Shown piece after piece: positions 5,089 through 26,401 of a stretch of 64,000 nucleotides of DNA (its first letter is position 1; each line of letters opens with the position of its first letter). A model generated the notes under the pieces. The model was not told the DNA's origin and did not search any database. It worked only from the letters and a program-made list of their open reading frames with translations. A program made the position numbers and the translations under genes. This stretch comes from Deltaproteobacteria bacterium (GTDB lineage Bacteria > Myxococcota_A > UBA9160 > SZUA-336). Where the stretch lies: NCBI GenBank assembly GCA_031396695.1, contig JANNLG010000091.1:3632-67631 (forward strand), given 5' to 3'.

Positions 5089-5877
5089 TCACAACAGGCC
5101 GTGACCCTTGATCTCGAGCGCCTTCTGCAGGAAGTCGAGCTCCGCCTCTCGGTAAGGAAGCGGCGCCGTGGCCTGGAGCAGCCGATCGCGCTCGAGCTCC
5201 TCGACGACCTTCGCGTCGCGCGGAAACGCGCTGCCGTAGCGGTTCATGTGGAACAGGTCGCCGAACGGACGGCGCGGCCGCTGCCCGCCCGCGCGCGGAT
5301 CCTCGAGCGGGTAGCCGACCGTCTGCAGCAGCAGCACGCGGCAGGTCTCGGGCATGCCGAGCGAGGCGCGGATCTTGTCGCCGTTCGGTGTACCCAGGCA
5401 ACAGGTGCCGAGCCCCTGCTCGTACGCCATCAGCGTGGCCTGCGCGATGCCCTGGCCGCAGTCGACCTCCGTGAGGCCGGGCTCCTTCAGCTTGTCGCGC
5501 AAGCTCGCGAACACGGGGATGAGCTGGGTCTCGAGCGCCTGCTCCTTGCCCGCGCCGAAGCCGAGCGCGCCGGCCTTGAGCAGCTCGCGCAAGCGGTTCG
5601 CCTGGTCGTCGATCGCGTCGGTGTCCAGGTACCAGACGATCACGACCGGCGCGCGCCGGATCTGGAAGCCCGCGATCGGAGCGACGATCGCGTCGACCAC
5701 GTCCTTCGGCGCGGTGTCGCGAAACACGACCACCGCGCGCAGCGCGCTCACGTTGCCCCAGTGCGAGGCGAGCCGCGCCGCTTCGAGCATGCGCTGGATC
5801 TTCTCCGGCTCGACCGGCTGATACGGCCGCATGAAACGGATCGAGCGCCGATTGCCGATGACCTCGCGAAGCTCCAT
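5089..5877 (-). CDS. Nitroreductase-family protein (paralog of 18543..19325)
   Basis: 262 aa. N-terminal NRRSIRFM motif typical of FMN nitroreductases. Shares a roughly 60-aa C-terminal extension (GGQRPRxPF...RDAKVV.ELE...APLP) with the second copy. Confidence 0.85.
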   Translation of the reverse strand: MELREVIGNRRSIRFMRPYQPVEPEKIQRMLEAARLASHWGNVSALRAVVVFRDTAPKDVVDAIVAPIAGFQIRRAPVVIVWYLDTDAIDDQANRLRELLKAGALGFGAGKEQALETQLIPVFASLRDKLKEPGLTEVDCGQGIAQATLMAYEQGLGTCCLGTPNGDKIRASLGMPETCRVLLLQTVGYPLEDPRAGGQRPRRPFGDLFHMNRYGSAFPRDAKVVEELERDRLLQATAPLPYREAELDFLQKALEIKGHGLL

Positions 5878-7177: not shown

Positions 7178-7193
7178 TATGACCGGCGTCATA
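7178..7193. promoter_or_regulatory. Perfect palindrome TATGAC-CGGC-GTCATA, candidate Crp/Fnr-family operator (copy 1 of 5)
   Basis: Read directly. Centre is 66.5 bp upstream of the ACAD ATG (7119). A TACGTT (TAnnnT) hexamer lies 21 nt downstream of the site on the minus strand, the geometry of a class II (-41.5) activator site. The site overlaps the stop codon of the Crp/Fnr gene. Confidence 0.7.
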
Positions 7194-7878
7194 TGGACCG
7201 CGAATCGCTCGCGGACTCTCCGTTCGCGACCTGCTCGAGCGCTACGCGATCGAGCAGGCGGATCCAGCCCACTCCGCCCTCGATCCAGCCCGCGCGCTCG
7301 AAGCCGCGCAGCACGCGGATGGCCGTCTCGACGGTCGTGCCGGCCGCTTCACCCAGGATCCGGCGCTTCGTCACGAGCCGCTGTCCCTCCGGTGCTTCGA
7401 GCAGCACTCGCGCCATGCGCGCGGTGACGGTGTCACTCGCGAACGAGCACAGCCGGTCGTGCGCATGCTGCAGACGCTCCGCCACGATCGAGAGCAGACC
7501 TCGGGCGATGCCGGGATCCTCCGCCAGGAACGTCTGCACCACGCGACGCGGTACCCGCCACGCCTCGCCCGGCACGACGCCCTGCGCGGACTCCGCGTGA
7601 CTCGCCCCGGACGTCAGCGCCGCGAGTCCGAACAAGTCACCGATCTGGAGGCGCTCGAGCTCGATCGCCCGTCCCGAAGCGTGGCTCTTCAGCGTGCGCA
7701 GCTCGCCGTTGCCGACGGCGAACATGTACTCCGCCGCCGCCGATTCGAAGTACAGGTACTCGCCCTCGCGGAACGGAATCGAGCGCACGTGAGGTCTGAG
7801 ACGGGGCATCCGCGCCGGTCCGAGCAGCCGGAACAGCGCGGTTTCCTCGAGCGGTCGCGGCTTCGCAGGGGCCTGCAT
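7189..7878 (-). CDS. Crp/Fnr-family transcriptional regulator (no FNR-type Cys cluster)
   Basis: 229 aa. Has a cNMP-binding-like beta-roll plus a C-terminal HTH (GTTVETAIRVLRGFERAGWI) resembling the FNR recognition helix TVETISR. Contains only one Cys. Confidence 0.9.
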   Translation of the reverse strand: MQAPAKPRPLEETALFRLLGPARMPRLRPHVRSIPFREGEYLYFESAAAEYMFAVGNGELRTLKSHASGRAIELERLQIGDLFGLAALTSGASHAESAQGVVPGEAWRVPRRVVQTFLAEDPGIARGLLSIVAERLQHAHDRLCSFASDTVTARMARVLLEAPEGQRLVTKRRILGEAAGTTVETAIRVLRGFERAGWIEGGVGWIRLLDRVALEQVANGESASDSRSI

Positions 7879-7948: not shown

Positions 7949-7964
7949 TATGACCTTCGTCATA
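7949..7964. promoter_or_regulatory. Perfect palindrome TATGAC-CTTC-GTCATA (copy 2 of 5)
   Basis: Lies in the divergent gap between the Crp/Fnr gene (ATG 7878) and the hemerythrin-like gene (ATG 8010). Suggests autoregulation. Confidence 0.7.
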
Positions 7965-8009
7965 GACGCTCCGCCCGCTGATTTTGCATGTTCGGTGCCG
8001 GAGGTAGCG

Positions 8010-8420
8010 ATGTCAGCGCACGCGACGTCGAATCCCATGATCCGCTGGTGGCAGGAGCACAGTGAGCTCGACGGCCTGGTCGAGGTCGTGGTCGAGGCGC
8101 TCGGCGGGGGCGCGATCGACTCCGCGGGCGAGTCGCTCGAGGATCTCGCAAGAGCGCTAGAGGCGCACTTCGAGCTCGAGGAGACAGCCTACTTCCCGCT
8201 GGTCGAGCGCCTCTCGCCCGACCAGCGCGCAGCGGTCGATGCGGCGCGGGTCGGTCACAGAAACATCCGCGAGCGACTCGAGGCTCTACTCACGCTCGTC
8301 GCGACCGGAGACTTGCGCGCCGCACGGGCGGCGTTCGACGTCCTGCTCGAGCGCTTCCGCACCCACGAAGCCGAAGAGGGCAAGTTGATCGCGCGGCTCG
8401 AGGCACTCGCCACCAGCTAG
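8010..8420 (+). CDS. Hemerythrin-like (HHE cation-binding) domain protein
   Basis: 136 aa from the internal ATG at 8010 (GGAGG at 8000-8004). Repeated H/E metal-ligand spacing (EHSELD, HFELEE, GHRNIRE, THEAEE) in a four-helix pattern. Confidence 0.7.
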   Translation: MSAHATSNPMIRWWQEHSELDGLVEVVVEALGGGAIDSAGESLEDLARALEAHFELEETAYFPLVERLSPDQRAAVDAARVGHRNIRERLEALLTLVATGDLRAARAAFDVLLERFRTHEAEEGKLIARLEALATS

Positions 8421-9754
8421 GGCGCGGGTCGGACGAAGTTGTTCATCCAATAGATGAACAGGCCCGTCAGCGCGACGTAGAGCCAGATGGGATAGCTGAT
8501 CCGCACGAGCCGCCGGTGCTCGGCGAAGCGCTCGCCAAGCGCGAGCTGCAACGTGCGCGCGACCAGCGGCACGACGGCGACGGCGAGCACGGTGTGAGTG
8601 GTCAGCACGGCGAGGAAGAAGGTTCGCAGCCAGTCGTCACCCGGAAAGCGGCGATGCCCGGCGAGACCGGTCTGCAGCACGTACAGCACCACGAAGAGCG
8701 CTCCGAGCGACACCGCCGAGAGCATCAGGCGTCGGTGCACCTCGCGCTGGCCGCGCCGGATCGCCACCAGCGCGGCAATCAAGAGCGCCGTGATCGCCGC
8801 GTTCAGCGCGCCGTTCAGGTGCGGCAGTAGCTCGCGTGGGCTCATCTCGACTCCTCGGGCTCCGAGCTCTAGGAGCATCGCGCCAAACAGACTCGAGAGG
8901 TAGAGCAGTGAGACGACGAACACGCGCCGATCGCCTGCGGCGCTGCGAGTGCGCACGGCCGCTGCGATCGAGCCCACGAACGCGATTCCGCCCGCGAGGG
9001 CGATGCTCGCGTAGCCGGCGCCGAGTACGCCGCCGGCGACCGGAAGCAGAGTCACGGGAATCAGCGCCAGCGCGAAGGCGAGCATGAAGCGACGAGTGAC
9101 TTGATCTCCGGCCACGGAGGGAAGCATGCGGAACGACGCCGCCTCGTACTCCTCGCGCCGGTACAGCGCGATCGCGAACACGTGCGGCGGTTGCCAGACC
9201 AGCACGATCGCGGCGAGCGCGATCCCCCACGGGCTGACGCGGCCGTCGACGGCGGCATCGGCGATCAACGGTGCAGTGCAGCCGGCGAACGCGCCCACCA
9301 GCGTGTTCCAGGCGCTGCGCGGCTTCAGCCAGATCGTGTAGACGAGCAGATAGTGCGCGAGCGTCGCCGCGCCGATCGCCGCGGGCAGCCAGCCACCGAC
9401 GGCGAAGAGCGCCAGCAGTCCGGCGACCGACGTCGCCATCCCGAAGGCCAGCGCGCGTCGAACCGGCAGCCGGCCGCTCGGCAGCGGGCGTGCGCGCGTT
9501 CGCTCCATGCGGGCGTCCGCGTCGCGCTCCCAGCACGCGTTGAGCGCGCTCGATCCCGCGCCGACGAGCGCGACTCCGAGCAGCGCGCCGAGCACCGTCG
9601 TCAGGTCGGGAAGTGCCGGCTGACCGAGCACGAACGCCGGCAGTGCGGTCAGCAGCACGCCGAGCAGCACGCCCGGACGCGTCAGGTCGAGATAGTCGCG
9701 CGCGCCCGATGTGCGCGGTGCGAGAGTCGCGACCTGCTGAGCGCTCGACGTCAT
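8417..9754 (-). CDS. ctaB: Protoheme IX farnesyltransferase (heme O synthase) fused to a DUF420 (CtaM-like) membrane domain
   Basis: 445 aa. The N-terminal ~290 aa is a UbiA-type prenyltransferase with CtaB/CyoE-like loops (NACWERDADARMERTRARPLP). The C-terminal ~150 aa (LPHLNGALNA...HRRLM...THTVLA...HRRLVRISYPIWLYVALTG) matches the DUF420 pattern. Confidence 0.85.
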   Translation of the reverse strand: MTSSAQQVATLAPRTSGARDYLDLTRPGVLLGVLLTALPAFVLGQPALPDLTTVLGALLGVALVGAGSSALNACWERDADARMERTRARPLPSGRLPVRRALAFGMATSVAGLLALFAVGGWLPAAIGAATLAHYLLVYTIWLKPRSAWNTLVGAFAGCTAPLIADAAVDGRVSPWGIALAAIVLVWQPPHVFAIALYRREEYEAASFRMLPSVAGDQVTRRFMLAFALALIPVTLLPVAGGVLGAGYASIALAGGIAFVGSIAAAVRTRSAAGDRRVFVVSLLYLSSLFGAMLLELGARGVEMSPRELLPHLNGALNAAITALLIAALVAIRRGQREVHRRLMLSAVSLGALFVVLYVLQTGLAGHRRFPGDDWLRTFFLAVLTTHTVLAVAVVPLVARTLQLALGERFAEHRRLVRISYPIWLYVALTGLFIYWMNNFVRPAP

Positions 9755-9764
9755 CCGGTCTCTC

Positions 9765-11852
9765 CTAGTGCAGGGTGAAGCCCGACGCGCGGTCGAACGC
9801 GATCACCCGCCGGGCTCGCTCGTCGAACGCGATGGACTGCTCGCTCGTGTGGGCCCACTCGTCGTCGTGGGTATCACCGATCTCCACGCGCACGAGGTGC
9901 TCTCCCGCAGGGACCGAGAGCGGCGCGACGGCGACGCTGGCGCCGTCGTTCCAGATGCCCTCGGGCGCGAAGCTCTCGTCGACCACTCGCGCACCGTCCA
10001 CGCTGACGCGCAGGCGAACCGGGGCGCGGCCCCGCTCGCACACCTCCGCCTGTCGCATGTGTCTGGGCAGACGTTCGAGCTCTTCCTCGCTGCGCGTGCG
10101 ACACACGTCGCTCTGTCGACCGGGGTGCTTGAACGTGACCACGAGCTCGGCGCCCGGCGCAGCAGGCGCGGTATAGCCCCAATCGCTGACAACGCCGATG
10201 ATCGCGCTGACGAGCAGCGCCAGAGCGACGGACCCCACGCCCGCCAGCGCGCGCGGTGGCTCCACAGTGGCTGGCCGTGGACGGTCTGCGAGCATTCGCG
10301 CGGCCGCGCGCACAAGCTCGGACTTGCGGGTCCGGTCGAGCCAGACGACCTCGATCCGCTCACGCACCTCGTGCTGCACACGCAGCGCCGGCCCACGCGT
10401 CCCGTCGAGCCGCTGGCCGAGAAACTCGGGCCCCTCGCGAAAGTGACACGATCCGGGCGGGCAGCTCACGATCAGCACCTGCTTCGCGCCGCGCCGCAGC
10501 GCCCGCTCGATCGACATCGCGTGGACCCAGCCCGCACACGGACCCGCCTGAACCCGCCAGCCGGGCAGCTCCGCACACAGCCCCGTCTTCGGGTCGATCT
10601 CGAGCGCACCTCCCGCCGACTGCGCGCAGACGAACGCGACGCCTGGCTGCTCGCCGTCCTGTCGTGCATGCTCGAGCCACGACGCGACGCGCTTGCGCTG
10701 TTCCAGCAGCGGGAACGCGGGCAGATCCGTGCCGATCGAATTGCACGAAGCCACGCAGATCCCGCACGCGACGCACTTCGCCGGGTCGACACGCGCCTCG
10801 AGCGCGTAGCTCTCGCGGCGGACCGGCTCCTCGCGTGTGACCATCGAGATCGCCTCGTACGGGCAGTCCTGGTAGCACTGCTCGCAAGCGTTGCAGCGCG
10901 CGGGGTCGACGGCCGCGCTCCGCGGCGCGCGCTTGCGCAGCGACCACGGCACCGCGCCGACCAGAGCGCCGCCGACGAGACACACGGTCCAGACCGCTCC
11001 GCCCGACAGCCGCTGGCCGAGCGCGAGCGGAAACAGGTACCACCAATCCATGCTGAACGACTCCGCGCGCGCGGTCATCTGCGCGCGCTCGGCGCTCGCG
11101 GCGGGATACGCGACCGAGAGCAGCGCGAGCGATCCCAGCACCCAGATCGTCATCGGAGCGCGCGTCAGGAAGCGCGCCCGCGCCGTGCGAGTCAGGTGCA
11201 GCCAGAGCAAGAACGCGAGCGCGAGAGGAACGAGCATGTGGAAGAAGAACACCACGAAGAACAACAGCGAGTTGATGCCCTCGTCGAACAGGAACGAGCG
11301 GCCCATCGGATCCGCGAAGATCGGCAGCGCGTCGAGCGCCTTCGCCGTCTCGATCGCCACGTATTTCCCGCGCACGTCCCAGACCAGCCAGTAACCGGTC
11401 CAGCCGAGCAGCCAGAGCACGCCAAGCGACAGCACGCCGGTCACCCACGCGACCCAGCGCGCGCCGCTGAAGCGTCTCTCGAAGAACAGCCGCAGCGCGT
11501 GCACCAGTCCGAAGAAGATGCACGCGTCGGAGCTGTAGCGGTGCAGCGAGCGCAAGAATCCCGCGCTCCACGGAGCGCTCGACATCGCGGCGACCGAGTC
11601 GTAGGCGAGGTACACGCTCGGGCGGTACCAGAACAGAAGCAGCACGCCCGTGACCGTGGCGACGAAGAGAGCGGTCAGCGCGACCGCCCCGGTCTGCAAG
11701 AACGGATTCAGCGCGTCGGGAAGCGCGCGCCCGAGCACGCGATCGAAGCCGAGGAACGAACGCTCGAGCAGACGCAGCGCGGCCTCCCCGCGGACCGATG
11801 CCTCGCCACCGTGCGCGGCCTCACCGGCCAGCCCGGCGCCTTCAGCCGCCAT
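9765..11852 (-). CDS. Fusion protein: di-heme cytochrome b (bc1/b6 N-terminal type) + 2x[4Fe-4S] ferredoxin + MvhD/FlpD-like domain + TM + C-terminal beta-rich domain
   Basis: 695 aa. Two His pairs on predicted helices (SLHRYSSDACIFFGLVHALR and FFFHMLVPLALAFLLWLHL). CNACEQCYQDCP and CVACGICVASCN cluster motifs. MvhD-like VAFVCAQS...GPCAGWV...VLIVSCPPGSCHFREG. Confidence 0.8.
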   Translation of the reverse strand: MAAEGAGLAGEAAHGGEASVRGEAALRLLERSFLGFDRVLGRALPDALNPFLQTGAVALTALFVATVTGVLLLFWYRPSVYLAYDSVAAMSSAPWSAGFLRSLHRYSSDACIFFGLVHALRLFFERRFSGARWVAWVTGVLSLGVLWLLGWTGYWLVWDVRGKYVAIETAKALDALPIFADPMGRSFLFDEGINSLLFFVVFFFHMLVPLALAFLLWLHLTRTARARFLTRAPMTIWVLGSLALLSVAYPAASAERAQMTARAESFSMDWWYLFPLALGQRLSGGAVWTVCLVGGALVGAVPWSLRKRAPRSAAVDPARCNACEQCYQDCPYEAISMVTREEPVRRESYALEARVDPAKCVACGICVASCNSIGTDLPAFPLLEQRKRVASWLEHARQDGEQPGVAFVCAQSAGGALEIDPKTGLCAELPGWRVQAGPCAGWVHAMSIERALRRGAKQVLIVSCPPGSCHFREGPEFLGQRLDGTRGPALRVQHEVRERIEVVWLDRTRKSELVRAAARMLADRPRPATVEPPRALAGVGSVALALLVSAIIGVVSDWGYTAPAAPGAELVVTFKHPGRQSDVCRTRSEEELERLPRHMRQAEVCERGRAPVRLRVSVDGARVVDESFAPEGIWNDGASVAVAPLSVPAGEHLVRVEIGDTHDDEWAHTSEQSIAFDERARRVIAFDRASGFTLH

Positions 11853-12777
11853 CGGGCTTCTCCCGCAGGAGAAGCTCCAGCGCCGAGCTCAGCCAGCGCT
11901 GCTGCCGCTCACCCAGCGTGAGTCGATAGGCGATGCGCCCGTCCCGGTCGACGAGGAGAAAGAGATTCGCGTGATCGATCACGCCGGTCTCGGGATCGCG
12001 GGTGCGCGCGATGCCCATGTCGTCGAGCACGCGCTCGACCTCGGTCGGCTCGCCGGTGACGAGCGCATAGAGCGGCGCCTCGATCTGGTGACTGCGCGCG
12101 AGCGCCGCGAGCACGTCTGGCGTGTCGTGCGCCGGATCCATGCTGACGGCGATCACGCGCAGATCGCCGCGCAGCTCCGCGGGCACCGCCGCGATCGCCG
12201 CCTTGGTCTGACCGAAAATCAGCGGACAGCTCAGCGGGCACGACGAGTACACGGCAGTCAGCAGCACGACCTTGCCCCGCAGTGCTTCGAGATCCAACGT
12301 GACTCCGTCCTGATTCACGAGCCGCAGAACGGGCGAGTGGAGCTGCGTGCGCAGCGCCTCGGCCGGGAACGTCAGCTGATCTCCCTCGGGCTCGCGACCG
12401 AGCGCCGTGAAGGAGATGGCGGCAATCGCGACGAAGAGAGCGCTCGATAGACATGGCCACACCCACGCGCGGCGTTGTGCCGCCAGCGCGCGCAACGGCT
12501 GCCACCAGAACAGCGCGATGACCGGAGCGATCACGGCCGGCGGTCCCATCATGGCCATCACGTAGCCCGGATTCAGACGGCCCGTCGCGGGGTCGTAGCC
12601 GAAGCACCAGATCCGGAACTCGTCCGCGAACCCGCCCATGCTCGTCTCACCTCCCGGGCTGAACAGCATCACGAGCAGCAGCAGCTCCCAGAACACGAGC
12701 ACGCCGAGCGCGAATGCGGGAAAGCCGCCGCCGTCGAAGAAGCGTTCGGCGTCCGCGCGGGCGTCGAGGGTGGTCAT
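11842..12777 (-). CDS. SCO1/SenC-family copper chaperone with extended N-terminal membrane region
   Basis: 311 aa from the ATG at 12777, which forms an ATGA overlap with the subunit I stop. Thioredoxin-fold CxxxC copper motif (SSCPLSCPLIF) and a downstream conserved His (D.AH.DTP-type region). The 669-aa ORF in the track is an artefactual N-terminal extension. Confidence 0.8.
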   Translation of the reverse strand: MTTLDARADAERFFDGGGFPAFALGVLVFWELLLLVMLFSPGGETSMGGFADEFRIWCFGYDPATGRLNPGYVMAMMGPPAVIAPVIALFWWQPLRALAAQRRAWVWPCLSSALFVAIAAISFTALGREPEGDQLTFPAEALRTQLHSPVLRLVNQDGVTLDLEALRGKVVLLTAVYSSCPLSCPLIFGQTKAAIAAVPAELRGDLRVIAVSMDPAHDTPDVLAALARSHQIEAPLYALVTGEPTEVERVLDDMGIARTRDPETGVIDHANLFLLVDRDGRIAYRLTLGERQQRWLSSALELLLREKPDGG

Positions 12778-14525
12778 CGCACGTGCCACACGTCTGCGAG
12801 CCATAGCCAGTTCGCGAAGTAGTAGACCGCGAACGAAAGCAGGAACACGAGCACCAGCACGAGCGTTCCCGGCGTGCGCTCGTCCTCGCCACCCGAACCC
12901 GGCGCCGGCTGGATCGCGGCGGCCGCGCGGCGATCGACGTGCCAGGCCGTCATCGGCTGGCCCGCGTTGGAGCGACCGAAGAACACGGCCGCGACCACCA
13001 GCGCGATGAACAGGAACAGCCCCAGGAAGGCGATCACCGACCCGACCCCGAGCAGCCCCAACATGACGTGCGCGCCGGAGTCGAAGCCCGCCGAGAACTG
13101 TGCGCCGCTGAACTCGACATCCCAGTGACGGCGCGGGACGCCGTAGGACCCGGCGAACGACATGCCGATCGCCATGGTCGTGATGCCGATGCCGAACAGG
13201 TACGGCTGGATCCTGCACCAGGTCCTCGCGTAGAACTCGCGCTGGAAGATCAGCGGGACGAGGTAGTAGGTCAGCGCCATGAACGCGAGCGTCGTGCCGC
13301 CGACTACGGTGACGTGGAAGTGACCCGGGATGCGCAGCGTGTTGTGCGCCATGATGTTGATCTGCTGCGTGCCGAGCACGACCCCGGTGATCCCGCCGCC
13401 GAAACCGAAGATCACGAGCGACAGGAAGAAGCCGGAGAATCCGGGATTCGACCACGGCGCGTTGGCGAGCCAGCCGAACAGCCCGCGCCCGAAGCCCTTC
13501 CCCCGCATCGCCACCTCGATCGACGCCGGCACCGTGAAGCCGTGGATCATCGATGCCAGGACGGCGAGATACATCGCGTAGGAGGTGTTCCAGATCTTCC
13601 ACGCCGCGCCGACGCCCGGATCGACCAGGATATGGTGCGCCGAGGCGAGGTTGATGAACAGGATGTAGAGCACGAAGGCGCCGCGGCAGACCGCCTGCGA
13701 GATCGGCTTCGCACCCACGGTCAATGCGCCGAGCAGGTACCAGACCGAGACCATCGCGCATACGTTCACCTGCTGAGACATGTGACCCAGTCCCCACCAG
13801 GTCACTCGATACCAACCGGGGTCGATCGCCGGCAGCACTCCGACCGACCACAGGAACGTCGGGATCATCACCACCGCGCCGTGCAAGAGCGTCACGACCG
13901 CGATGATCGCGGCCGCGGTGGCGCCGAACACGACCAGCGGCACGGAGCCCTCGTAGGTGTGGTCGCGCTTCGCGATGTAGAGCGTGCAGAAGAAGTTGAT
14001 CACGGCCACCAGCGCTCCGACCGCGAACAGGATGATGCCCAGGTAGAACAGCGGGTGCGCGACCAGCGGCGCGTACGACGTCATCAGCACGTCCGCCTTG
14101 CCGATCAGAATGGTGGCGTTGAACATGACCGCGCCGGCGAGCATCAGCGCGAATGCGATCCAGGCCAGCGCCACCGAATAGAGTCGGCTGTTGAGCAGGA
14201 CCGTCCCCGCGAAGTAGAGGATCGCGATCTCGAAGTTCAGGATCATCACGATCAGCATGTCGAGGCCGTGCAGCGTGAGAACGCGGTAGTACCAGTCCGC
14301 GGGAAGCAGATGCACCGCCGGCCAGCGCGTGAGACCGAGCAGGATGGCTCCCACGCCGCCGATCAGCAGGAACACGACGGCTGTGACCGCGTGCAGCTTC
14401 ATGAAGCGCTGCGCCGTGAGACAGACCGGCAGCCCGGTCGTGTCGCAGGCGCGGACCACTCCGGTCGGGTGATTTCCATGTGCCTCCGTCGGGATCGTGT
14501 CGCCGGGGATCGTCGTAGTCGTCAT
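12774..14525 (-). CDS. Heme-copper oxidase superfamily subunit I (B-family-like, canonical cross-link Tyr absent)
   Basis: 583 aa with about 12+ TM segments. Helix VI WWGLGHMSQQV (CuB His, but Gln at His+4). Helix VII SAHHILV (CuB HH). Helix X PGHFHVTVVGGT (heme ligands). Helix II LTLHGLDM. Confidence 0.85.
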   Translation of the reverse strand: MTTTTIPGDTIPTEAHGNHPTGVVRACDTTGLPVCLTAQRFMKLHAVTAVVFLLIGGVGAILLGLTRWPAVHLLPADWYYRVLTLHGLDMLIVMILNFEIAILYFAGTVLLNSRLYSVALAWIAFALMLAGAVMFNATILIGKADVLMTSYAPLVAHPLFYLGIILFAVGALVAVINFFCTLYIAKRDHTYEGSVPLVVFGATAAAIIAVVTLLHGAVVMIPTFLWSVGVLPAIDPGWYRVTWWGLGHMSQQVNVCAMVSVWYLLGALTVGAKPISQAVCRGAFVLYILFINLASAHHILVDPGVGAAWKIWNTSYAMYLAVLASMIHGFTVPASIEVAMRGKGFGRGLFGWLANAPWSNPGFSGFFLSLVIFGFGGGITGVVLGTQQINIMAHNTLRIPGHFHVTVVGGTTLAFMALTYYLVPLIFQREFYARTWCRIQPYLFGIGITTMAIGMSFAGSYGVPRRHWDVEFSGAQFSAGFDSGAHVMLGLLGVGSVIAFLGLFLFIALVVAAVFFGRSNAGQPMTAWHVDRRAAAAIQPAPGSGGEDERTPGTLVLVLVFLLSFAVYYFANWLWLADVWHVR

Positions 14526-14529
14526 CGCG

Positions 14530-15057
14530 CTACTCCTCGACCAGGATGCGTCCGGCCATCAGGTGGTGGCCGATGCCGCAGAACTCGTTGCAGATGATCG
14601 TGAACTCACCCGAGCTCGTCGGAGTCAGGGTGAGCACGTGGTCGTAGCCCGGCAGGATCTGGAAGTTCATGTTCAATGGCTGCAGCGAGAAGCCGTGCTG
14701 CAGGTCGATCGACGAGATGTGTACGCGGTAGGTCTGATCCTTCTTGAGCTTCAGGACCGGAAACCACGACCACATCTGCGCCTGCAGATAGGCGTCTCCT
14801 CCGGGCGCGGGCTGCACGATCGGGATGCCGTTCAGCTCCCCGACTTGGTTCGTGGACACGAAGCGCGCCACGCGCTGGGCGAACTCCGCGGGCGTGACCC
14901 GGTACGCCTCGCCGGTGCTGTTCTGCTTGCCGTAGAAGTGCCAGTACGGCATTGCGACGAACATCACGAGGCACCAGCTCATCGCGAGGCCGACCCAGAG
15001 TCTCTCCGCTCCGTGCGGCGCCTTGAACCAGCCCGCCGGCGGTGGATGAATGCTCAT
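14530..15057 (-). CDS. Heme-copper oxidase subunit II with complete CuA site (single TM, ba3-like size)
   Basis: 175 aa with one N-terminal TM and a cupredoxin domain. CuA ligand pattern: H in DLQHGFSL, and CNEFCGIGHHLM (C-x-E-x-C-G-x2-H-x2-M). Confidence 0.85.
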   Translation of the reverse strand: MSIHPPPAGWFKAPHGAERLWVGLAMSWCLVMFVAMPYWHFYGKQNSTGEAYRVTPAEFAQRVARFVSTNQVGELNGIPIVQPAPGGDAYLQAQMWSWFPVLKLKKDQTYRVHISSIDLQHGFSLQPLNMNFQILPGYDHVLTLTPTSSGEFTIICNEFCGIGHHLMAGRILVEE

Positions 15058-15072
15058 GCGATCACTCCTTGT

Positions 15073-15228
15073 TCACGGCAACGTCGCGGGCGCCAGGTAG
15101 TACAGCTCGACCCATGCCCAAAGCGTGTACGAGACGATCGGGATCAACACCCCGAGCGCGAGCAGCAGCCACGGATTGTCCATGAGTCTCTGCAGCGGGT
15201 GGACGTAGCCCGAGTCACTTCGCGCCAT
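15073..15228 (-). CDS. Small single-TM membrane protein (oxidase accessory subunit candidate)
   Basis: 51 aa from the ATG at 15228 with a GAGGAGG RBS. One hydrophobic helix (PWLLLALGVLIPIVSYTLWAWV). Position is analogous to the small subunits of ba3/cbb3 oxidases. Confidence 0.5.
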   Translation of the reverse strand: MARSDSGYVHPLQRLMDNPWLLLALGVLIPIVSYTLWAWVELYYLAPATLP

Positions 15229-16666
15229 AGTCGAACCTCCTCGACCCGGCCAGCGCACCCGCCGCCGGAGTGACCGATTCGCGACTCAGCCAGGCGGACC
15301 CGACGACCGCGATGAACAAGATGCCTCCGGCGATCGAGGCGAAGCCGCCTAGCCCCATCAGGCCCAGACCCAACGTCTCGGCGACACCGCGAGCCGCCTG
15401 CTCCGCGCCGTAGATCTTGCGCCCCATGCCGTGCGCGCCCGCGAGCGCGAAGCCGGCCGCCAGCACCAGCATCCCGGCGCCATACACCGCGGGCTGCCAG
15501 ACGACCGCGCGGCGCATTCCACTGCTCGAGATCCCGAGACCGAACGACGGCAGCAGCAGGTAGCTCGCCGCCATGAATGCGAGCGTGATCGCCCCGACCG
15601 ACGCGTGATAGTGCGCGGGGACCATCGTGCTCTGGCCGCGAATCGCCGCGCCGAGCCCGAAGCCCACCGCGGTCAGGACTGCACTCACGAGAAACGCGGA
15701 GATGCGCGGGTCCGCGAGCGACGCGGCGGAGATCGCGCCCGCACGCCATGCACGCACGACGGCCGTCGTGCACAAGATCAGGAAGATCGTGACGACCGGG
15801 AAGATGCACCAGCGCATCAGCTCGGTGTATCCGACCTGGTAGCCCGCCGTGTGGGTGCCCGCGAGCGCGAACACAGGCGCGAACAGCCACGGCAGAAGAA
15901 GCGCGACGAATAGCCAGCGCGCCGCGAGCGCGCTCACCGGGGCCGCGCCGAGCGCGGACTCGAGCAGCCACAGCCAAAGCGAGAGCATGGCGAGCGTGCA
16001 CACGAGCTGCAGCACGTGCCCGATTCCCCAGACCAGCAGGTCGGCGTACACGTCGGGTTGGAGACCGCCTGGCGCGCGCAGCCAGGTGAATGCGAGCGTG
16101 AGCGCGGCGAGCAGCAGCGCCGCGCGCGCCGTGCGCAGGCCGCTGACCACGCCCGCCGGCATGTCGATGGCGACCAGGCGCGCCGCGCCCGCGCGCCGAT
16201 CGGGCAGAAAGCGGGAATCGACGAAGCTGGCGAGTACGCCGAATCCGAACACCAGCTGACCCGCCTGGAAGATCCAGTGATCCACTGTCGGGATGTAGTT
16301 CGAGAGCAACGGAGGCGCGCCGGGAATCCCGGCTCCGACGAGCTGCAGCGCGATCCCCGCACCCGCGACGTGAACCGAGTGCCGCGCGAGCCACCCGGCG
16401 CGTCCGCGCGCCGGCAGCAGGAAGAAGAGCGAAGCCAGGATCGAGTAGAACCAGGCGACCAACGCCAGGTTGACGTGCGCGACCAGACAGCGCTTGAAGA
16501 AGACCGGGTCGGTCACGAAGCGATCGAAGGGAGGCATGCGTCCCAGAACCACGGCAAGCGCGAACAATCCGGCGAGCACGAGCACGATCAGCGACATTCC
16601 CAGCCAGCGCCGAGAAGCGAGTCGAAGTTCCGAGGTGTCGCTGCTCGTGCTAGCCGTTGAGGACAT
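15215..16666 (-). CDS. Divergent heme-copper-oxidase subunit I-like membrane protein lacking the helix VII His-His pair
   Basis: 483 aa, polytopic. Clear local similarity to the neighbouring subunit I (LVWGIGHVLQLV vs WWGLGHMSQQV; VPAHYHASVGAITLAFMAASYLLLP vs IPGHFHVTVVGGTTLAFMALTYYLVP). No HH motif, only GTHTAG. Confidence 0.7.
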   Translation of the reverse strand: MSSTASTSSDTSELRLASRRWLGMSLIVLVLAGLFALAVVLGRMPPFDRFVTDPVFFKRCLVAHVNLALVAWFYSILASLFFLLPARGRAGWLARHSVHVAGAGIALQLVGAGIPGAPPLLSNYIPTVDHWIFQAGQLVFGFGVLASFVDSRFLPDRRAGAARLVAIDMPAGVVSGLRTARAALLLAALTLAFTWLRAPGGLQPDVYADLLVWGIGHVLQLVCTLAMLSLWLWLLESALGAAPVSALAARWLFVALLLPWLFAPVFALAGTHTAGYQVGYTELMRWCIFPVVTIFLILCTTAVVRAWRAGAISAASLADPRISAFLVSAVLTAVGFGLGAAIRGQSTMVPAHYHASVGAITLAFMAASYLLLPSFGLGISSSGMRRAVVWQPAVYGAGMLVLAAGFALAGAHGMGRKIYGAEQAARGVAETLGLGLMGLGGFASIAGGILFIAVVGSAWLSRESVTPAAGALAGSRRFDYGAK

Positions 16667-16853: not shown

Positions 16854-17084
16854 TCAGTCGATCTGCGGCATCTTCGCGCGCGACAGTCCGAGCAGCGCGC
16901 GGACCAGGAAGCCGAGCATTCGCGGCCGCAGCGTCATGCGCAGCAGCTGCAGAAACTCGCCGAGCGTCATGTGGGTGCGCGCGTCCCACACGCCCATCTT
17001 CCCGCTGATCACGATCTCGCCCTGGCCCGGCTCCATCCTGTCGAACGACAGGATGAAGCGCCCCGCTTGCGACTCGACCGTCAT
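16854..17084 (-). CDS. Hypothetical small protein (76 aa)
   Basis: High GC3 coding pattern. The ATG is 1 nt after the stop of the upstream 450-aa gene. No recognisable motif. Confidence 0.5.
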   Translation of the reverse strand: MTVESQAGRFILSFDRMEPGQGEIVISGKMGVWDARTHMTLGEFLQLLRMTLRPRMLGFLVRALLGLSRAKMPQID

Positions 17085-17085
17085 C

Positions 17086-18438
17086 TCAGGCCGCCCGCAG
17101 CGCCCGCGCGCGCCGCGCGTGCCACTTCTCCAGGTGGCGTCGGTGCCGTTCGGTGTAGGCCCCGTCCTGGTAGTGCGTGTCGTAGAAGTCGCAATCGATG
17201 TGCTGCGCCTGCACCATCACCGTCAGCAGGCAGGGATCGACGAGCGCCGGCAAGCGTCCCCACTTGCGCCAGACCGCGCGCAAGACGTCCTTCGTGCACT
17301 GCACGATCACCGGGTCCGTGCGCGGGATGGCGACCTCCATCTGGCCCGGACGCTTGTACGGAGCGTTCTCCGCGTTCGCGGGATGGAAGATCCCCGTCGG
17401 ACCCCACTTGCGCTCGATCAGATCGTCGACCGCGTCGTCGATCGAGCCGCCGTAGTAGTACGGGTGGTGCGTCTCGAAGACACCGTCTTTCCCGATCGGG
17501 TACGGGAAGCCCGCGAGCGGACCGTGATCCGCGGTCTCGAAGCGGAAGCCGAGGCCTCGACACAGAGGTGTGCCGCCGAGCGCCATCATCGCGTTGAAGC
17601 CGCCAAACGGCCAGCCTCCGAGTCCGAGCGCCGATTCCACCAGCAGCAGGTTCTGCGCCATGAAGCCGACCTCGACGTTGCACGCGCCGAAGGCGACCAG
17701 CGGCTCGAGACTCTGGTACGGCACCGGAATCGTCGCCAGCCCCTGCTTCACCCACTTCTCGCAGCCGAGCGGCGTCATGCCGTCATCGGCGTCCACCGGA
17801 TAGTTGCCCTGCTCGATGAACAGCATCAGCCCGTTGATCAGCTCCGCGGTCACGTCGCAGACCGGCATGAAGAGCGTCGTGCCGGGCTGGTTCGCGTTCC
17901 AGGTGTTGAACGACATGAACGCGGGCGAAGAGTGCGGCAGGTCGATGCGCTCGCTCGAGATCTGCACGCGCCGGTCCGCGAACACGGAGACTAGCTGATC
18001 GAGATCGTCCATGCGCGCGATCTCCTGCATGCGCTCGGGGTGCGTGCCGCGGATCTTCACGACGTAAGTGCCCTCGTCGTTCGTGTAGAACAGCTCCGTG
18101 CCGTGCGAGCCACAGGGACTCGGAAAGGTGCGGCCCGAGTACTCGAGCATGGTGTTGCAGTTGCCGTCCCAGGCCTCACCGGGCGCGAGCTCCTCCTTCC
18201 GCGTGTGCGGCATGTCCGCGAGGTTCGTGCCGGACATGCCCGTCGCGGCCATGCACAAGAGCGCCTCCTCCTCGAAGGAGAGCGGCAGCGGCTGCGCCTG
18301 CGACTTGAATGCGTTGGGTCCGTGACGGATCTCCATGCCCAGTCCGAAGCGGCGTGAGCGCCGTGTGAAGATCGACTCGAAGAGTGGCGTCGACCAAGCC
18401 TCTTCGAGCAGCTTGCGGGTCTCGGGATCCATCGCCAT
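17086..18438 (-). CDS. Large nitroreductase-superfamily-like protein (450 aa, function unknown)
   Basis: Start at the ATG at 18438 (MAMDPE...), with GAGGAGGAA 6 nt upstream. N-terminal TRRSRRFGLG and mid-protein GFMAQNLLLVESALGLGGWPFGG resemble nitroreductase FMN-fold motifs. The domain assignment is tentative. Confidence 0.7.
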   Translation of the reverse strand: MAMDPETRKLLEEAWSTPLFESIFTRRSRRFGLGMEIRHGPNAFKSQAQPLPLSFEEEALLCMAATGMSGTNLADMPHTRKEELAPGEAWDGNCNTMLEYSGRTFPSPCGSHGTELFYTNDEGTYVVKIRGTHPERMQEIARMDDLDQLVSVFADRRVQISSERIDLPHSSPAFMSFNTWNANQPGTTLFMPVCDVTAELINGLMLFIEQGNYPVDADDGMTPLGCEKWVKQGLATIPVPYQSLEPLVAFGACNVEVGFMAQNLLLVESALGLGGWPFGGFNAMMALGGTPLCRGLGFRFETADHGPLAGFPYPIGKDGVFETHHPYYYGGSIDDAVDDLIERKWGPTGIFHPANAENAPYKRPGQMEVAIPRTDPVIVQCTKDVLRAVWRKWGRLPALVDPCLLTVMVQAQHIDCDFYDTHYQDGAYTERHRRHLEKWHARRARALRAA

Positions 18439-18492
18439 GGCAGGTTCCTCCTCGCGCTGGCTGCAAAGAGAACAGGCGCGCCGAGCGGCAGC

Positions 18493-18508
18493 TATGACGG
18501 CGGTCATA
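18493..18508. promoter_or_regulatory. Perfect palindrome TATGAC-GGCG-GTCATA (copy 3 of 5)
   Basis: Lies in the divergent gap. Centre is 62.5 bp from the 450-aa gene ATG (18438) and 42.5 bp from the nitroreductase ATG (18543). Confidence 0.7.
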
Positions 18509-18542
18509 AGCCGGGGGATTGCGCCCGGCTAGTGTCGTGTTG

Positions 18543-19325
18543 ATGGAACTACGCGGTGTACTCGGTGGGCGGCGTTCGATCCGCTTCTTCGACCCGGATC
18601 GACCGGTCGAGCGTGCGAAGATCCAGAGGATGCTCGAGGCGATGCGAATCGCTTCGTGCGCGGTGAACGCGCACTGGCTGCGCGCGGTGGTGGTGAATCG
18701 CGCCGACATCCCGGCCGCGACGCTGGAGGCTCTGAAGACGCCCGTCGCCGGGCTCGTCCAAGAGCTCGCTCCGGTCCACATCTACTGCTACCTCGACGCG
18801 GGCGTGGTCACGCGCGTGAAGGGTGCGCGCCTGAAGCAGCTCGTGGACGTCGGCGCGCTGAACCCGACGCACGGTTGGAGTCACCGCTTCGTCGACGAGT
18901 TCGTCTATCCCCAGATCCTCGAGCCGATGACGAAGGGGCCAGGCTATCTCGTCTCGGCCGCCTTCGACTGCGGCGGCGCCGGTACGCAGGGTCTGCTGGT
19001 CGCCGTCGACGAGGGACTCGGCGTCTGCTGGACGGCGTTCAACCCGGCGCCCGCAAAGCAGCTGCTCGGCGTGCCCGACGACTGGGTGCCTCTCTACTGT
19101 CTGAACGTCGGCTACGCACTCGAGTCACGCGATGCCGGTGGCCAGCGACCACGCCCGCCGTTCGAAGAGCTGTACTTCGAGGGTCGCTTCGGCCGGCCCT
19201 TCGCGCGCGACGCGAAGGTGGTCGGCGAGCTCGAGCAGACCGGCATGATCCAGCCGCCCGCGCCGCTGCCGGGCCGCCGCGAGGAAATTCGCGGGCTCGC
19301 GCACCGGCTCGGGCTGCCGGAGTAA
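18543..19325 (+). CDS. Nitroreductase-family protein (paralog of 5089..5877)
   Basis: 260 aa from the ATG at 18543 (MELRGVLGGRRSIRFF...). Alignable end to end with the 262-aa copy, including the C-terminal extension. Confidence 0.85.
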   Translation: MELRGVLGGRRSIRFFDPDRPVERAKIQRMLEAMRIASCAVNAHWLRAVVVNRADIPAATLEALKTPVAGLVQELAPVHIYCYLDAGVVTRVKGARLKQLVDVGALNPTHGWSHRFVDEFVYPQILEPMTKGPGYLVSAAFDCGGAGTQGLLVAVDEGLGVCWTAFNPAPAKQLLGVPDDWVPLYCLNVGYALESRDAGGQRPRPPFEELYFEGRFGRPFARDAKVVGELEQTGMIQPPAPLPGRREEIRGLAHRLGLPE

Positions 19326-25000: not shown

Positions 25001-25146
25001 CCTTGGTCGTGGTTCCGGTCGTCTATTGCCTGCTCGATTCGCTGCGCATCGGCGCCGCATTGCGCCTCGGCACCGCTCTGCGCGAGCGGCTTCGCGGATG
25101 GTCAGGGCTCGTCGAAGAACGAATCGATCTCGGGCGGCGCCCGTAG
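22012..25146 (+). CDS. RND efflux transporter permease (AcrB/HAE family)
   Basis: 1044 aa. Internally duplicated 12-TM architecture with two large periplasmic loops. Typical N-terminus SIRRPVFALMLSL. Confidence 0.95.
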   Translation: MKLASLSIRRPVFALMLSLGLVVLGLVSLSRLEIALDPDVEFPFIAVTTVLRGASPETVESEITDVLEEEINTTEGIRSLRSVSAESLSQVFVEFEIGEDVDVKAQQIRDKVALARPRLPLDAEDSVVAQLDPDAAPILSILLAGPYAIRELSELAENEVADRIERLPGVGSVSVVGSRRREIRIWLDPLRLSGYGLSIEEIADVLRRENAELAGGRIENAEQEWAVTTANKVGRIDDFGSLIVAERGGSLVHLLDVATIEDGLQEERSIARLNGERGVSLEVRRRSGANTVAVARAVRATVEELRATLPAGLSMSLARDNATFIEDSIGSIFEDMVLGAILTVAVVLLFLRNLRSTLIAALAIPASVIASFTFFLMAGFTLNMMSLMALSLSIGLVIDDAIVVLEAIYRRLESGESRREAADRGTEQVGLAVVSTTLAVCAVFVPIAFMSGMVGQWFYEFGLVVAIAVGVSTLVALTLTPMLASKLLRLERAPGRTVRTLERGQTALEHGYRRLLAGALRRKGLTVGAALVAIVLGLGVAALLPFDFYQQGDQGEFAVDAKLPIGTPLGVTDRVSRRIEEIVSAQPHVLDVFATVGPGLQREANRTHIVVKLVPKQERSATQLDVMDALRETLHDAVPEAEEISVGELSWIQFSGGRSATLVYTLRGPDLERLAGHAAALVARMKSDPVFVDVASSHETGRPEIRLTLARDVAADLSVPGVAVGRTIRALLAGEKVGTFEQSGERYDVRVQVLPEYRDDPGELDLIRVRSMRGDLVPLTNVARVRIGEGPVEIHREDRSRQITLYANLAHGAPLGVGSQKLEAWGRELAIVSPDELAAAGRARAMMETGTAIRFAFFLALAAIYMILASLFNSLVHPFTIMVSAPLAFIGGFLALWFAGMSLDLMSGIGLLVLLGLVMKNGILLVDCANQLREDGRSAQNAMLEAGPVRLRPVLMTTGALIFGLLPVAFSASSGSEFRAPMAMITVGGLLTSTLLTLVVVPVVYCLLDSLRIGAALRLGTALRERLRGWSGLVEERIDLGRRP

Positions 25147-25620
25147 GCCCAGCTGGATCGCGGCGATATCCGCGATCTTCCGCCGCGCGGCGATCAGGTG
25201 GACCGGGATCGAGATCGCGATCGCCCAAGACAGCCAGATGTGGGAGTCGAGCGCGAAGTCGGCCGCGCCGACCGGCAGGTGCTCCTGCTGCCACAGCGCG
25301 AGGCCGGAGAGCGACAACAGCAGCGACAACACGAGCGTGAGCACGATGTGCAGCTTGCGCCAGTTCGGCGGATCGGGCGGGCCGAGCCGCGCGCCCAGGT
25401 CGCGAGCGAGCGGCCGCGCCGCGAGCGCCAACGAGAGCAGCGGCGCGGCGATGAACGCGAAGCCCGTCCACTCGTGCACGGCGGCGAGCGCCAGTCCGTA
25501 GCCGCCGAGCAGCTGCGCGCGCAGCTCCGGCCAGTGGATCAGAACGCCGGTGGCGACGAGCAGCAGGCTGGCGCAGGCATGCGCGGCGTGGAGGGCGCGT
25601 CGCAGGCTTCCCGGGCTCAT
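25102..25620 (-). CDS. Four-helix b-type cytochrome (cytochrome b561 / hydrogenase-FDH gamma-like) membrane protein
   Basis: 172 aa with 4 predicted TM segments and conserved-looking His on the helices (LIHW, AVHEW, LHIVL, SHIW...PVHL). Divergent from the molybdoenzyme operon. The RBS is weak. Confidence 0.6.
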   Translation of the reverse strand: MSPGSLRRALHAAHACASLLLVATGVLIHWPELRAQLLGGYGLALAAVHEWTGFAFIAAPLLSLALAARPLARDLGARLGPPDPPNWRKLHIVLTLVLSLLLSLSGLALWQQEHLPVGAADFALDSHIWLSWAIAISIPVHLIAARRKIADIAAIQLGLRAPPEIDSFFDEP

Positions 25621-25729: not shown

Positions 25730-26401
25730 ATGCGCGCCCACTACGTCACTCCCGCGGAATTCTCGACGCTGCTCGCTCCGGACGCAGTCGGCTGGAATGC
25801 AGCAAGACCCGAGACCCTGCGGCTCTCGGGCACACCCCTGGCGCTGCAGCCGACGGCTGCGATCCAGGTTGCCTGGGCCAAGCGCAAGATCGGCGCGGTG
25901 GGTCGCGTCGAGGTGGCGGCGCTTCACGACGGCGCGCGTCTGGCGTTCCATCTCGACTGGCCGGATGCGACGGAGAACCGGGAGGTGAGCGACACCGTCA
26001 CCTTCGTCGACGCGGCCGCGGTCGTGCTGGCGGCGACCCCCGCCGCACCGCTGATCACGATGGGCGCGCCGGGCCTGCCGGTGAACGCCTGGTACTGGCG
26101 CGCCGACGAGACGCATGGTCGCGAGGTCATTGCCGAGGGCATCGGCTCCAGTCTCACGCTCGACGGAGCGCTCGTGACCAGCCAGGGACTTTGGAAAGGC
26201 GGCCGCTGGCACGTCGTGATCGCGCGTCTGTTGCACACAGCTGCTGGCAGCGCGGGCGTGCAGCTCGAACCCGGCCGGCCGACACCGTTCGCTGTCGCCG
26301 TCTGGGAAGGCTCGAACGGCGAGCGTGCGGGCATCAAGGCGTTCTCCGGCGAATGGCGGGAGCTCGTGCTCGACGTGATTCCCGCGTCGACGGCGGGGTG
26401 A
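25730..26401 (+). CDS. Type II DMSO-reductase-family gamma subunit (EB_dh heme-b domain), no signal peptide
   Basis: 223 aa. Ethylbenzene-dehydrogenase-gamma-like pattern (HLDWPD, NAWYWRAD, ERAGIKAFSGEW with a candidate Lys ligand, and a Met in ITMGAP). GGAGG is 7 nt before the ATG, and no upstream in-frame start is available. Confidence 0.8.
   Translation: MRAHYVTPAEFSTLLAPDAVGWNAARPETLRLSGTPLALQPTAAIQVAWAKRKIGAVGRVEVAALHDGARLAFHLDWPDATENREVSDTVTFVDAAAVVLAATPAAPLITMGAPGLPVNAWYWRADETHGREVIAEGIGSSLTLDGALVTSQGLWKGGRWHVVIARLLHTAAGSAGVQLEPGRPTPFAVAVWEGSNGERAGIKAFSGEWRELVLDVIPASTAG

Follow-up and report, generated by a model that had tools for sequence, protein, structure and literature searches.

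A 64,000-nucleotide stretch of a Deltaproteobacteria bacterium genome (assembly GCA_031396695.1, contig JANNLG010000091.1; hereafter the window) encodes, at 15215–16666 on the minus strand, a 483-aa protein with 12 transmembrane helices that is a paralogue of subunit I of the haem-copper oxidoreductases (HCOs), the enzymes of aerobic respiration and of much of biological N2O production. The protein was shown to be a member of a large, old and selectively maintained family of HCO subunit I paralogues. It lacks the CuB site, and its conserved ligands predict that two haem sites are kept. We tentatively propose that the paralogue is a non-catalytic two-haem assembly or haem-handling factor of HCO biogenesis, a reading that falls somewhat short of an even chance.

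The identification rests on comparison with the neighbouring gene, on profile–profile comparison and on fold, since searches against known families were empty. BLASTP aligned the paralogue end to end with the adjacent catalytic subunit I (12774–14525, hereafter the partner) at 26% identity (E = 2e-18), and hhalign of the two family alignments gave a probability of 100% (E = 8.5e-43). The AlphaFold (AF2) model (pLDDT 88, pTM 0.90) contains 12 transmembrane helices. The top 50 Foldseek matches to this model were all HCO subunit I, the best being the Thermus ba3 subunit I (TM score 0.75, E = 7e-9), indicating that the 12-helix subunit I fold of the HCO superfamily (PF00115) is present. No match was found in NCBIfam or in Pfam, the latter searched also at E ≤ 10; at that threshold neither PF00115 nor NnrS (PF05940), the two families that the preliminary description of the gene had proposed for checking, was detected in the window protein. 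Members of a second subfamily described below did match PF00115, with 41–61 bits against a cut-off of 34.8. CtaA/Cox15 (PF02628) was likewise not matched by the paralogue in Pfam, and a CtaA profile built from 9 sequences matched nothing in the window. Searches of PDB sequences by phmmer or with a 58-sequence profile, and of PLSDB plasmids by tblastn, returned nothing for the paralogue.

The empty Pfam, NCBIfam and PDB-sequence searches are what might be expected if the gene were a decaying duplicate or if its similarity to subunit I were an artefact of transmembrane composition. This explanation was refuted by the hhalign and fold matches, by at least 1,400 sequence clusters with invariant ligands, by a dN/dS of ~0.23 and by synteny kept across phyla, and it is considered extremely improbable. 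The dN/dS value was obtained against the closest related locus (L020), where the catalytic partner gave 0.20. The paralogue diverges faster than the partner (~55% versus 77% identity across the same loci) and is under purifying selection. Apparent frameshifts were seen in the paralogue of L020 (position 8903) and in the COX1 gene of L016 (10288–11045); both lie on long-read contigs of metagenome-assembled genomes and are most likely assembly errors, not pseudogenes.

Residue conservation was analysed in two sets, 74 relatives from genome loci (35–81% identity) and 133 representatives with at most 50% mutual identity. Exactly four histidines were 100% conserved in both sets: H64, H217, H352 and H354. 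His64 (codon at 16475–16477), in the LVAH64 motif of helix II, aligns with H86 of the partner and corresponds to the first axial low-spin haem ligand. The H352-Y353-H354 motif of helix X (15605–15613), in which Y353 is 98% conserved, aligns with H402/H404 and would provide the proximal ligand of the "high-spin" haem and the second ligand of the low-spin haem. All three haem axial histidines, one in helix II and two in helix X, are accordingly found in the paralogue. Of the three CuB/FeB histidines only H217 remains; it closes the helix VI segment W213-G-I-G-H217 (16016–16030; motif W-G-x-G-H-x-x-Q) and is followed by Q220 and Leu221. W213, H217 and Q220 are 96–100% conserved in the family. The haem propionates of HCOs are held by an Arg-Arg pair, and the equivalent of R465/R466 of the partner is R416-K417 (15416–15421), with R416 in 133/133 representatives and Lys at position 417 in 131/133.

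The residues lost are equally consistent. Helix VII is remodelled (ALLLPWLFAPVFALAGTH, 15851–15904): in the hhalign mapping the His-His pair of the partner is replaced by a 3-residue deletion and a proline, H297 falling in a gap and H298 opposite Pro264, which is 97% conserved. A conserved helix VII His-His pair was looked for in the 133 representatives and none was found. H272 of the GTHT segment, which the pairwise alignment sets opposite the first histidine of the pair, is specific to the window protein (1/74 relatives) and was ruled out as a surviving CuB ligand. The loss of the pair is therefore real and family-wide. At position 221, four residues after the helix VI histidine, where oxidases have the cross-linked Tyr and the partner has an invariant Gln (Q252), the family has Leu, Val or Phe (Leu221 here), so that the Gln typical of the eNOR type of nitric oxide (NO) reductase is missing as well. 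When every polar residue invariant in the partner was placed onto the paralogue, Y287, N292, S295, D302, K310, N313, T314, S325, H328, T331 and E337 all fell on hydrophobic residues or gaps; the polar residues of the K-channel-like proton path of helices VII and VIII, as found in eNOR, are gone. Two further candidates were dropped. The invariant M284 does not define the family as a new ligand, as the partner has the same invariant Met (M326), and a bo3-like quinol site formed by R43, D53 and R59 was set aside, as the conserved R43 and R59 near helix II are common to the partner.

The ligand and mapping data therefore describe a paralogue with two haem pockets, without a second metal and without a proton path. 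As judged from the alignments, this is the pattern of a pseudo-enzyme: the haem sites persist and selection continues to act, while catalytic metal, key residue and proton path have disappeared. The preliminary description had noted the helix II-, VI- and X-like motifs, the retention of three haem axial histidines and one CuB histidine, and the loss of the His-His pair and of the cross-link Tyr; each of these observations, including the conservation of the histidines on which its authors had made the similarity depend, was upheld across the family.

A scan of one genome per species detected a relative of the paralogue in at least 588 species genomes, and a profile search of 1.84 billion representatives gave 1,423 clusters at 50% identity, 580 of them at E ≤ 1e-30. 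The occurrence of such a gene beside an HCO, described earlier as unusual, is thus widespread; Becker et al. (bioRxiv 10.64898/2026.01.22.701106) call a COX1-like "eNOR scaffold protein", probably of the same family, "a very common observation" in eNOR operons. In ~70/80 of the best genome loci, which belong to Myxococcota, Planctomycetota, Verrucomicrobiota and Spirochaetia, the gene order is that of the window: paralogue, IIa, II, I, SCO, cytochrome b/FeS, with or without the haem O synthase gene ctaB. As had been proposed, the paralogue heads the HCO operon of the window, being its first gene on the minus strand. Two exceptions to this order were found. In Calditrichota the paralogue is followed by SCO, an A-type COX1, COX3, a COX2/cytochrome c and CtaB. 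In Planctomycetota it is followed by a monohaem cytochrome c gene and a CysG-like gene, with no HCO nearby. In three planctomycete loci (L060, L074 and L076) the monohaem cytochrome c gene comes directly after the paralogue, and in two of them a CysG-N-like gene (sirohaem synthase type) is present; the pairing resembles NorB/NorC without the catalytic metal site. No Pfam domain other than that of a sigma factor was found in the flanks of the planctomycete loci.

A second, larger subfamily (6,460 hits) is ~30% identical to the first, has the same invariant residues and includes a protein of the cultured Thiothrix nivea. All eight contexts inspected lay in or beside aa3-type cox clusters (COX2-COX1-Cox11-COX3-Surf1-...-CtaB), and in all eight the haem A synthase gene ctaA was within 10 kb of the paralogue, directly adjacent in three and one or two genes away in four. 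One locus contains the run CtaA-CtaA-SCO-paralogue-PCuAC. The genes of this subfamily are often transcribed divergently from the structural cox genes. In T. nivea (L084; 8985–10004 and 12553–13332) and in L085 and L089 the paralogue is accompanied by genes for DUF2189 membrane proteins; one of the T. nivea genes overlaps the paralogue start by 4 nt and may encode a partner protein. Natural fusions were also identified. One joins the paralogue to a bona fide haem O synthase (TIGR01473, 250 bits) and parallels the known CtaA-CtaB fusions (PMC9145763); others join it to a bc1-type cytochrome b (P0233) and to TPR domains.

A reverse survey started from eNOR-type COX1 genes in 80 metagenome loci, of which 30 had at least 5 kb of downstream sequence. 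The paralogue was present in 9/80 loci and in 7/30 of those with the longer downstream sequence, in the orders COX1-paralogue-CtaB-SCO-cytochrome b, COX1-SCO-cytochrome b-paralogue-CtaA and paralogue-CtaB; two loci (L111 and L170) contained CtaA and the paralogue together. The paralogue was absent from the cultured eNOR-type operons of Defluviimonas, Thermomicrobium and Thermus. The paralogue thus accompanies more than one type of HCO operon frequently, but as an optional accessory. Constant co-occurrence with a Tyr-less HCO, a possibility raised in the preliminary description, was ruled out in both directions: relatives occur with A-type oxidases or with only a cytochrome c, and most of the sampled eNOR-type operons have no paralogue.

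An assembly accessory is favoured because the steady neighbours of the paralogue, in clusters of NO and O2 reductases alike, are haem O/A synthases, copper chaperones and structural HCO genes; haem O/A and HCO biogenesis genes lie near it in the eNOR-type, aa3 and Calditrichota contexts. In the proposed mechanism, the paralogue would be made together with the eNOR-type IIa-II-I, SCO, cytochrome b/FeS and haem O synthase-CtaM proteins and would load its subunit I-like sites with a farnesylated haem (O, A or As) supplied by CtaB or CtaA. It might then hold the haem, redox-poise it or pass it to newly made subunit I, perhaps when docked on the complex, and would be an optional accessory rather than a core subunit. 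Among the roles suggested earlier, that of a scaffold fits best, and that of a quinol-interacting partner is neither supported nor opposed by R43 and R59, which the partner also has. A haem-only NO-binding or NO-reducing role is disfavoured because the proton path is lost, relatives occur in aa3 clusters and many eNOR-type operons have no paralogue.

Several points weigh against an assembly factor. Its haem content and haem type are deduced from ligand conservation, and simple haem storage does not explain why H217 and Q220, in what was once the metal pocket, are strictly conserved. The usual place of assembly genes is the 3' end of an operon, so the first position and the translational coupling of the paralogue favour a stoichiometric subunit. 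The cytochrome b fusion and the downstream cytochrome c gene of Planctomycetota suggest electron transfer through the paralogue haems, and a pure chaperone would not need such partners. Surf1 (PF02104), the known haem a chaperone, is encoded in the same gammaproteobacterial clusters as the second subfamily, implying that the role of the paralogue there is redundant or different. Support for the assembly reading comes from Ferrigenium straubiae, in whose eNOR operon Becker et al. describe a COX1-like "eNOR scaffold protein of unknown function" that, by description and operon content, probably belongs to the same family. This protein was detected in the proteome under denitrifying conditions at a value of 28.0, compared with 31.6 for eNOR I and II.

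The genes of the window operon are tightly packed on the minus strand in the order paralogue, IIa, II, I, SCO, cytochrome b/FeS/FlpD and CtaB-DUF420. The second gene (15073–15228) encodes a one-helix protein of 51 aa that is a probable analogue of subunit IIa of B-type HCOs; its ATG (15228) is preceded by GGAGG and overlaps the paralogue stop by 14 nt. This small ORF (open reading frame) is kept at the same position in most related loci and is absent where no eNOR genes follow, and the order small ORF-II-I likewise occurs in Defluviimonas, Thermomicrobium and Thermus. Subunit II (14530–15057; PF00116 and TIGR02866) has a complete CuA motif (CNEFCGIGHHLM). It is followed by the partner subunit I (12774–14525; PF00115, 1.3e-62) and by a SCO1/SenC copper chaperone with an N-terminal membrane part (11842–12777; PF02630, 4.3e-18). 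The COX1 stop and the SCO ATG overlap as ATGA, and this junction and that between the paralogue and the small ORF are, by their sequences, ones of translational coupling. The next gene (9765–11852; PF00033, Fer4, PF02662) encodes a 695-aa fusion of a bc1/b6-type cytochrome b, a ferredoxin with two [4Fe-4S] motifs, an FlpD/MvhD-like domain and a C-terminal extension. Operons of the eNOR type conserve the fusion both where the paralogue is present and where it is not (Defluviimonas L081, L091 and many of L092–L171). It resembles a transmembrane electron conduit from a cytoplasmic FeS module to redox centres on the P side; for a variant of the cytochrome b/FeS protein with FAD/NAD domains, the Ferrigenium preprint (bioRxiv 10.64898/2026.01.22.701106) speculates on a quinol:NAD+ oxidoreductase. 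The last gene (8417–9754) encodes a haem O synthase (CtaB; TIGR01473, 247 bits) fused to DUF420 (CtaM; PF04238, 8e-38). CtaM is required for aa3 oxidase activity in Bacillus and Staphylococcus. In L007, L008, L014 and L058, DUF420 is encoded by a separate gene directly upstream of the paralogue. A scan for promoters and terminators returned no more sites than expected by chance.

This arrangement bears on a second explanation, in which the paralogue is a di-haem subunit that stays bound to the NO reductase complex, relays electrons into or out of it and has no chemistry of its own; the electrons would come from the cytochrome b/FeS/FlpD protein, a cytochrome c or quinol. The conservation of both haem sites in the low-spin/high-spin arrangement, the position as the first gene of the operon with translational coupling to IIa-II-I, the natural cytochrome b-paralogue fusion, the monohaem cytochrome c gene directly downstream in Planctomycetota and the detection of the Ferrigenium protein in the proteome are all consistent with such a relay. 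Both haems of an HCO, however, lie at equal membrane depth, so electrons would not be transported across the membrane. Moreover, eNOR-type operons with the same cytochrome b/FeS protein lack the paralogue in Defluviimonas and in 20/30 metagenome loci; a relay does not account for the recurrent CtaA and CtaB neighbours or for the fusions to haem O synthase and TPR domains; and the genes of the second subfamily are often transcribed divergently from the structural cox genes. A relay subunit is therefore regarded as unlikely, although it has a real share of the probability.

In a third explanation, the paralogue could be a haem-modifying enzyme or a redox partner of haem A synthesis. Haem O would be the substrate in the former a3 pocket, with electrons delivered or removed by the low-spin haem through its contacts with FeS, cytochrome b or cytochrome c partners; the protein would open a further route to haem A or As that might not need O2, or would be the missing electron partner of CtaA. 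CtaA was found neither within ±8 kb of the 80 window-type loci nor in the 64-kb window, and all of these loci have CtaB; the absence covers these distances and not the rest of each genome, which limits its force. Also in line with this explanation, CtaB is fused here to CtaM, a protein whose occurrence tracks that of the haem A synthesis genes (PMC9145763), in Thermomicrobium COX1 is followed by CtaA-CtaB, the paralogue-haem O synthase fusion mirrors the CtaA-CtaB fusions, and the second subfamily adjoins CtaA. The cytochrome b and c partners could act as electron sink or source, and the Ferrigenium preprint asks how a haem A-dependent eNOR matures under anoxia. The co-occurrence of CtaA and the paralogue in L111, L170 and all eight contexts of the second subfamily argues in the other direction: it weakens the idea that the paralogue replaces CtaA and implies that it is no simple CtaA substitute. 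The pocket, moreover, keeps one His and one Gln, with no obvious catalytic residues and no proton path. A role in haem modification is thus rather improbable; if true, it would account for the maturation of haem A-dependent eNOR in denitrifiers under full or near anoxia.

The neighbouring enzyme is probably an eNOR-type NO reductase. Its subunit I has the six canonical histidines and an invariant Q251-Q252, with Gln at the Tyr position, which is described as diagnostic of eNOR (PMC8756737). Because of this eNOR-type Gln (Q252) and the lack of the Tyr, the enzyme is a probable NO reductase and not an oxidase. The "complete HCO" of the preliminary description is thus one without the Tyr. The motif GH..QQ.N is common to the cultured homologues, which are ~50% identical and are encoded on a Defluviimonas plasmid, the Thermomicrobium roseum megaplasmid and Thermus thermophilus plasmids. 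Among 46 homologues the partner also has invariant H328, H394, E337, K310 and D302. The Thermus subunit I (T. thermophilus plasmid pHB5018d, locus L083, 7983–9665) has H-F-K instead of H-F-H in helix X, so that His and Lys ligate its low-spin haem, and lies beside multicopper (NirK-like), cytochrome c and radical SAM/SPASM genes. Such His/Lys ligation is described for some eNORs by Murali et al. (PMC11214002).

The operon adjoins nirS and genes of haem d1 biosynthesis in at least 11 related loci. These genes would be in keeping with a fourth explanation, that the paralogue is an independent haem-only enzyme that reduces or binds NO or acts on peroxide or O2, or a gas sensor controlling the NO reductase, as would the hemerythrin and Crp/Fnr regulator genes after the operon in the window and the five-coordinate, His-ligated haem with a distal His/Gln pocket that is plausible from the conserved residues. 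The nirS linkage is, however, accounted for by the eNOR partner. The paralogue has no second metal, no Gln/Tyr residue and none of the proton-path residues, the family occurs equally in the aerobic aa3 clusters of sulfur-oxidising Gammaproteobacteria, no sensor output domain is present, and neither NnrS nor any other family was matched. An enzyme or sensor is thus improbable.

The assembly-factor reading can be set beside known systems. NifEN, a degenerate paralogue of the nitrogenase NifDK, keeps the cofactor-binding architecture and serves in cofactor maturation and delivery. The paralogue is comparable in being a degenerate twin of a catalytic subunit encoded with it; the analogy would be functional, whereas sequence and cofactor are unrelated. 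CtaA/Cox15 and Surf1 resemble the paralogue in being membrane proteins with His-bound haem that handle farnesylated haem for HCO assembly and are encoded in the same clusters, directly adjacent to many family members, and they may be viewed as analogues, but there is no sequence or fold relationship. Many loci encode CtaA and Surf1 alongside the paralogue, so that it does not simply duplicate their roles. NnrS of denitrifiers, which contains haem and copper, is likewise a polytopic membrane protein tied to NO metabolism, whereas the fold of the paralogue matches HCO subunit I. The subunit I of eNOR (Rhodothermus marinus; Murali et al. 2024, PMC11214002) and that of ba3 share with the paralogue the 12 helices, the histidines of helices II, VI and X, the Arg pair region and the SNY/SY-P motif, and the closest sequence relative is the eNOR-type neighbour. 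Unlike them, the paralogue is without two of the three FeB/CuB histidines, the diagnostic Gln and the polar residues of helices VII and VIII, and it is therefore not classifiable as an eNOR or an oxidase.

The family has probably been noticed and informally named once and has never been characterised. The Ferrigenium scaffold protein is recorded in the supplement of Becker et al. as IMG gene 2878407321, "hypothetical protein", KO K02274. As in the window, its COX1-like gene accompanies eNOR II, eNOR I, haem O synthase, Sco1 and cytochrome b/FeS genes, a description that the window and ~70/80 loci fit. The Ferrigenium gene order resembles that of L111, L165 and L170; the scaffold gene comes after the cytochrome b gene, whereas the window paralogue comes first. 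The preprint is silent on the ligands, the haem sites, the loss of the proton path, the aa3-cluster subfamily and the fusions. The term "eNOR scaffold protein" was not found in the literature searched beyond this preprint, a search for HCOs lacking CuB returned unrelated papers only, and in their available parts the papers of Murali et al. defining eNOR, sNOR, gNOR and nNOR contain no mention of the paralogue. The analysis of ligands, propionate clamp and proton path, the size and subfamilies of the family, the aa3 clusters next to CtaA, the fusions and the optional status in eNOR operons are new here.

Haem insertion into HCOs is poorly understood, and to our knowledge haem A synthase has no known electron partner in bacteria. 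The paralogue family is widespread and under selection in Myxococcota, Planctomycetota, Verrucomicrobiota, Gammaproteobacteria and others. With the haem-binding half of subunit I and the company of CtaA, CtaB, SCO and the structural genes, it is a specific candidate for an assembly or haem-handling component that has been missing, and cultured carriers such as T. nivea open the question to experiment. Genes of the family are labelled "cbb3-type cytochrome c oxidase subunit I" or K02274, and these labels inflate the counts of oxidases and NO reductases in metagenomic surveys.

Other genes of the window were also recorded. Just downstream of the operon lie genes for a Crp/Fnr-type regulator (7189–7878, minus strand) and a hemerythrin-domain protein (7950–8420, plus strand). 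The eNOR-type operon of Defluviimonas ends in a hemerythrin gene, and that of Thermus is followed by Rrf2 and DUF542 (ScdA-like) genes. These hemerythrin, Crp/Fnr, Rrf2 and ScdA-like neighbours suggest NO/O2-responsive control or repair. Directly upstream of the operon are genes for proteins of 473 and 76 aa, which have no Pfam match and are conserved only in the closest locus (L020), and two nitroreductase-family genes lie near the operon; the entry for the upstream region spans 16854–18507 (minus strand), 18519–19325 (plus strand) and 5089–5877 (minus strand). Further away, a cytochrome b561-like gene (25102–25620, minus strand), a gene for an ethylbenzene-dehydrogenase-type haem b subunit (25730–26401, plus strand) and a gene for a 1,144-aa molybdopterin oxidoreductase (26839–30273, plus strand) together look like a cluster for a periplasmic molybdoenzyme of the Nar/EBDH family, and similar Mo enzymes flank L012 and L016.

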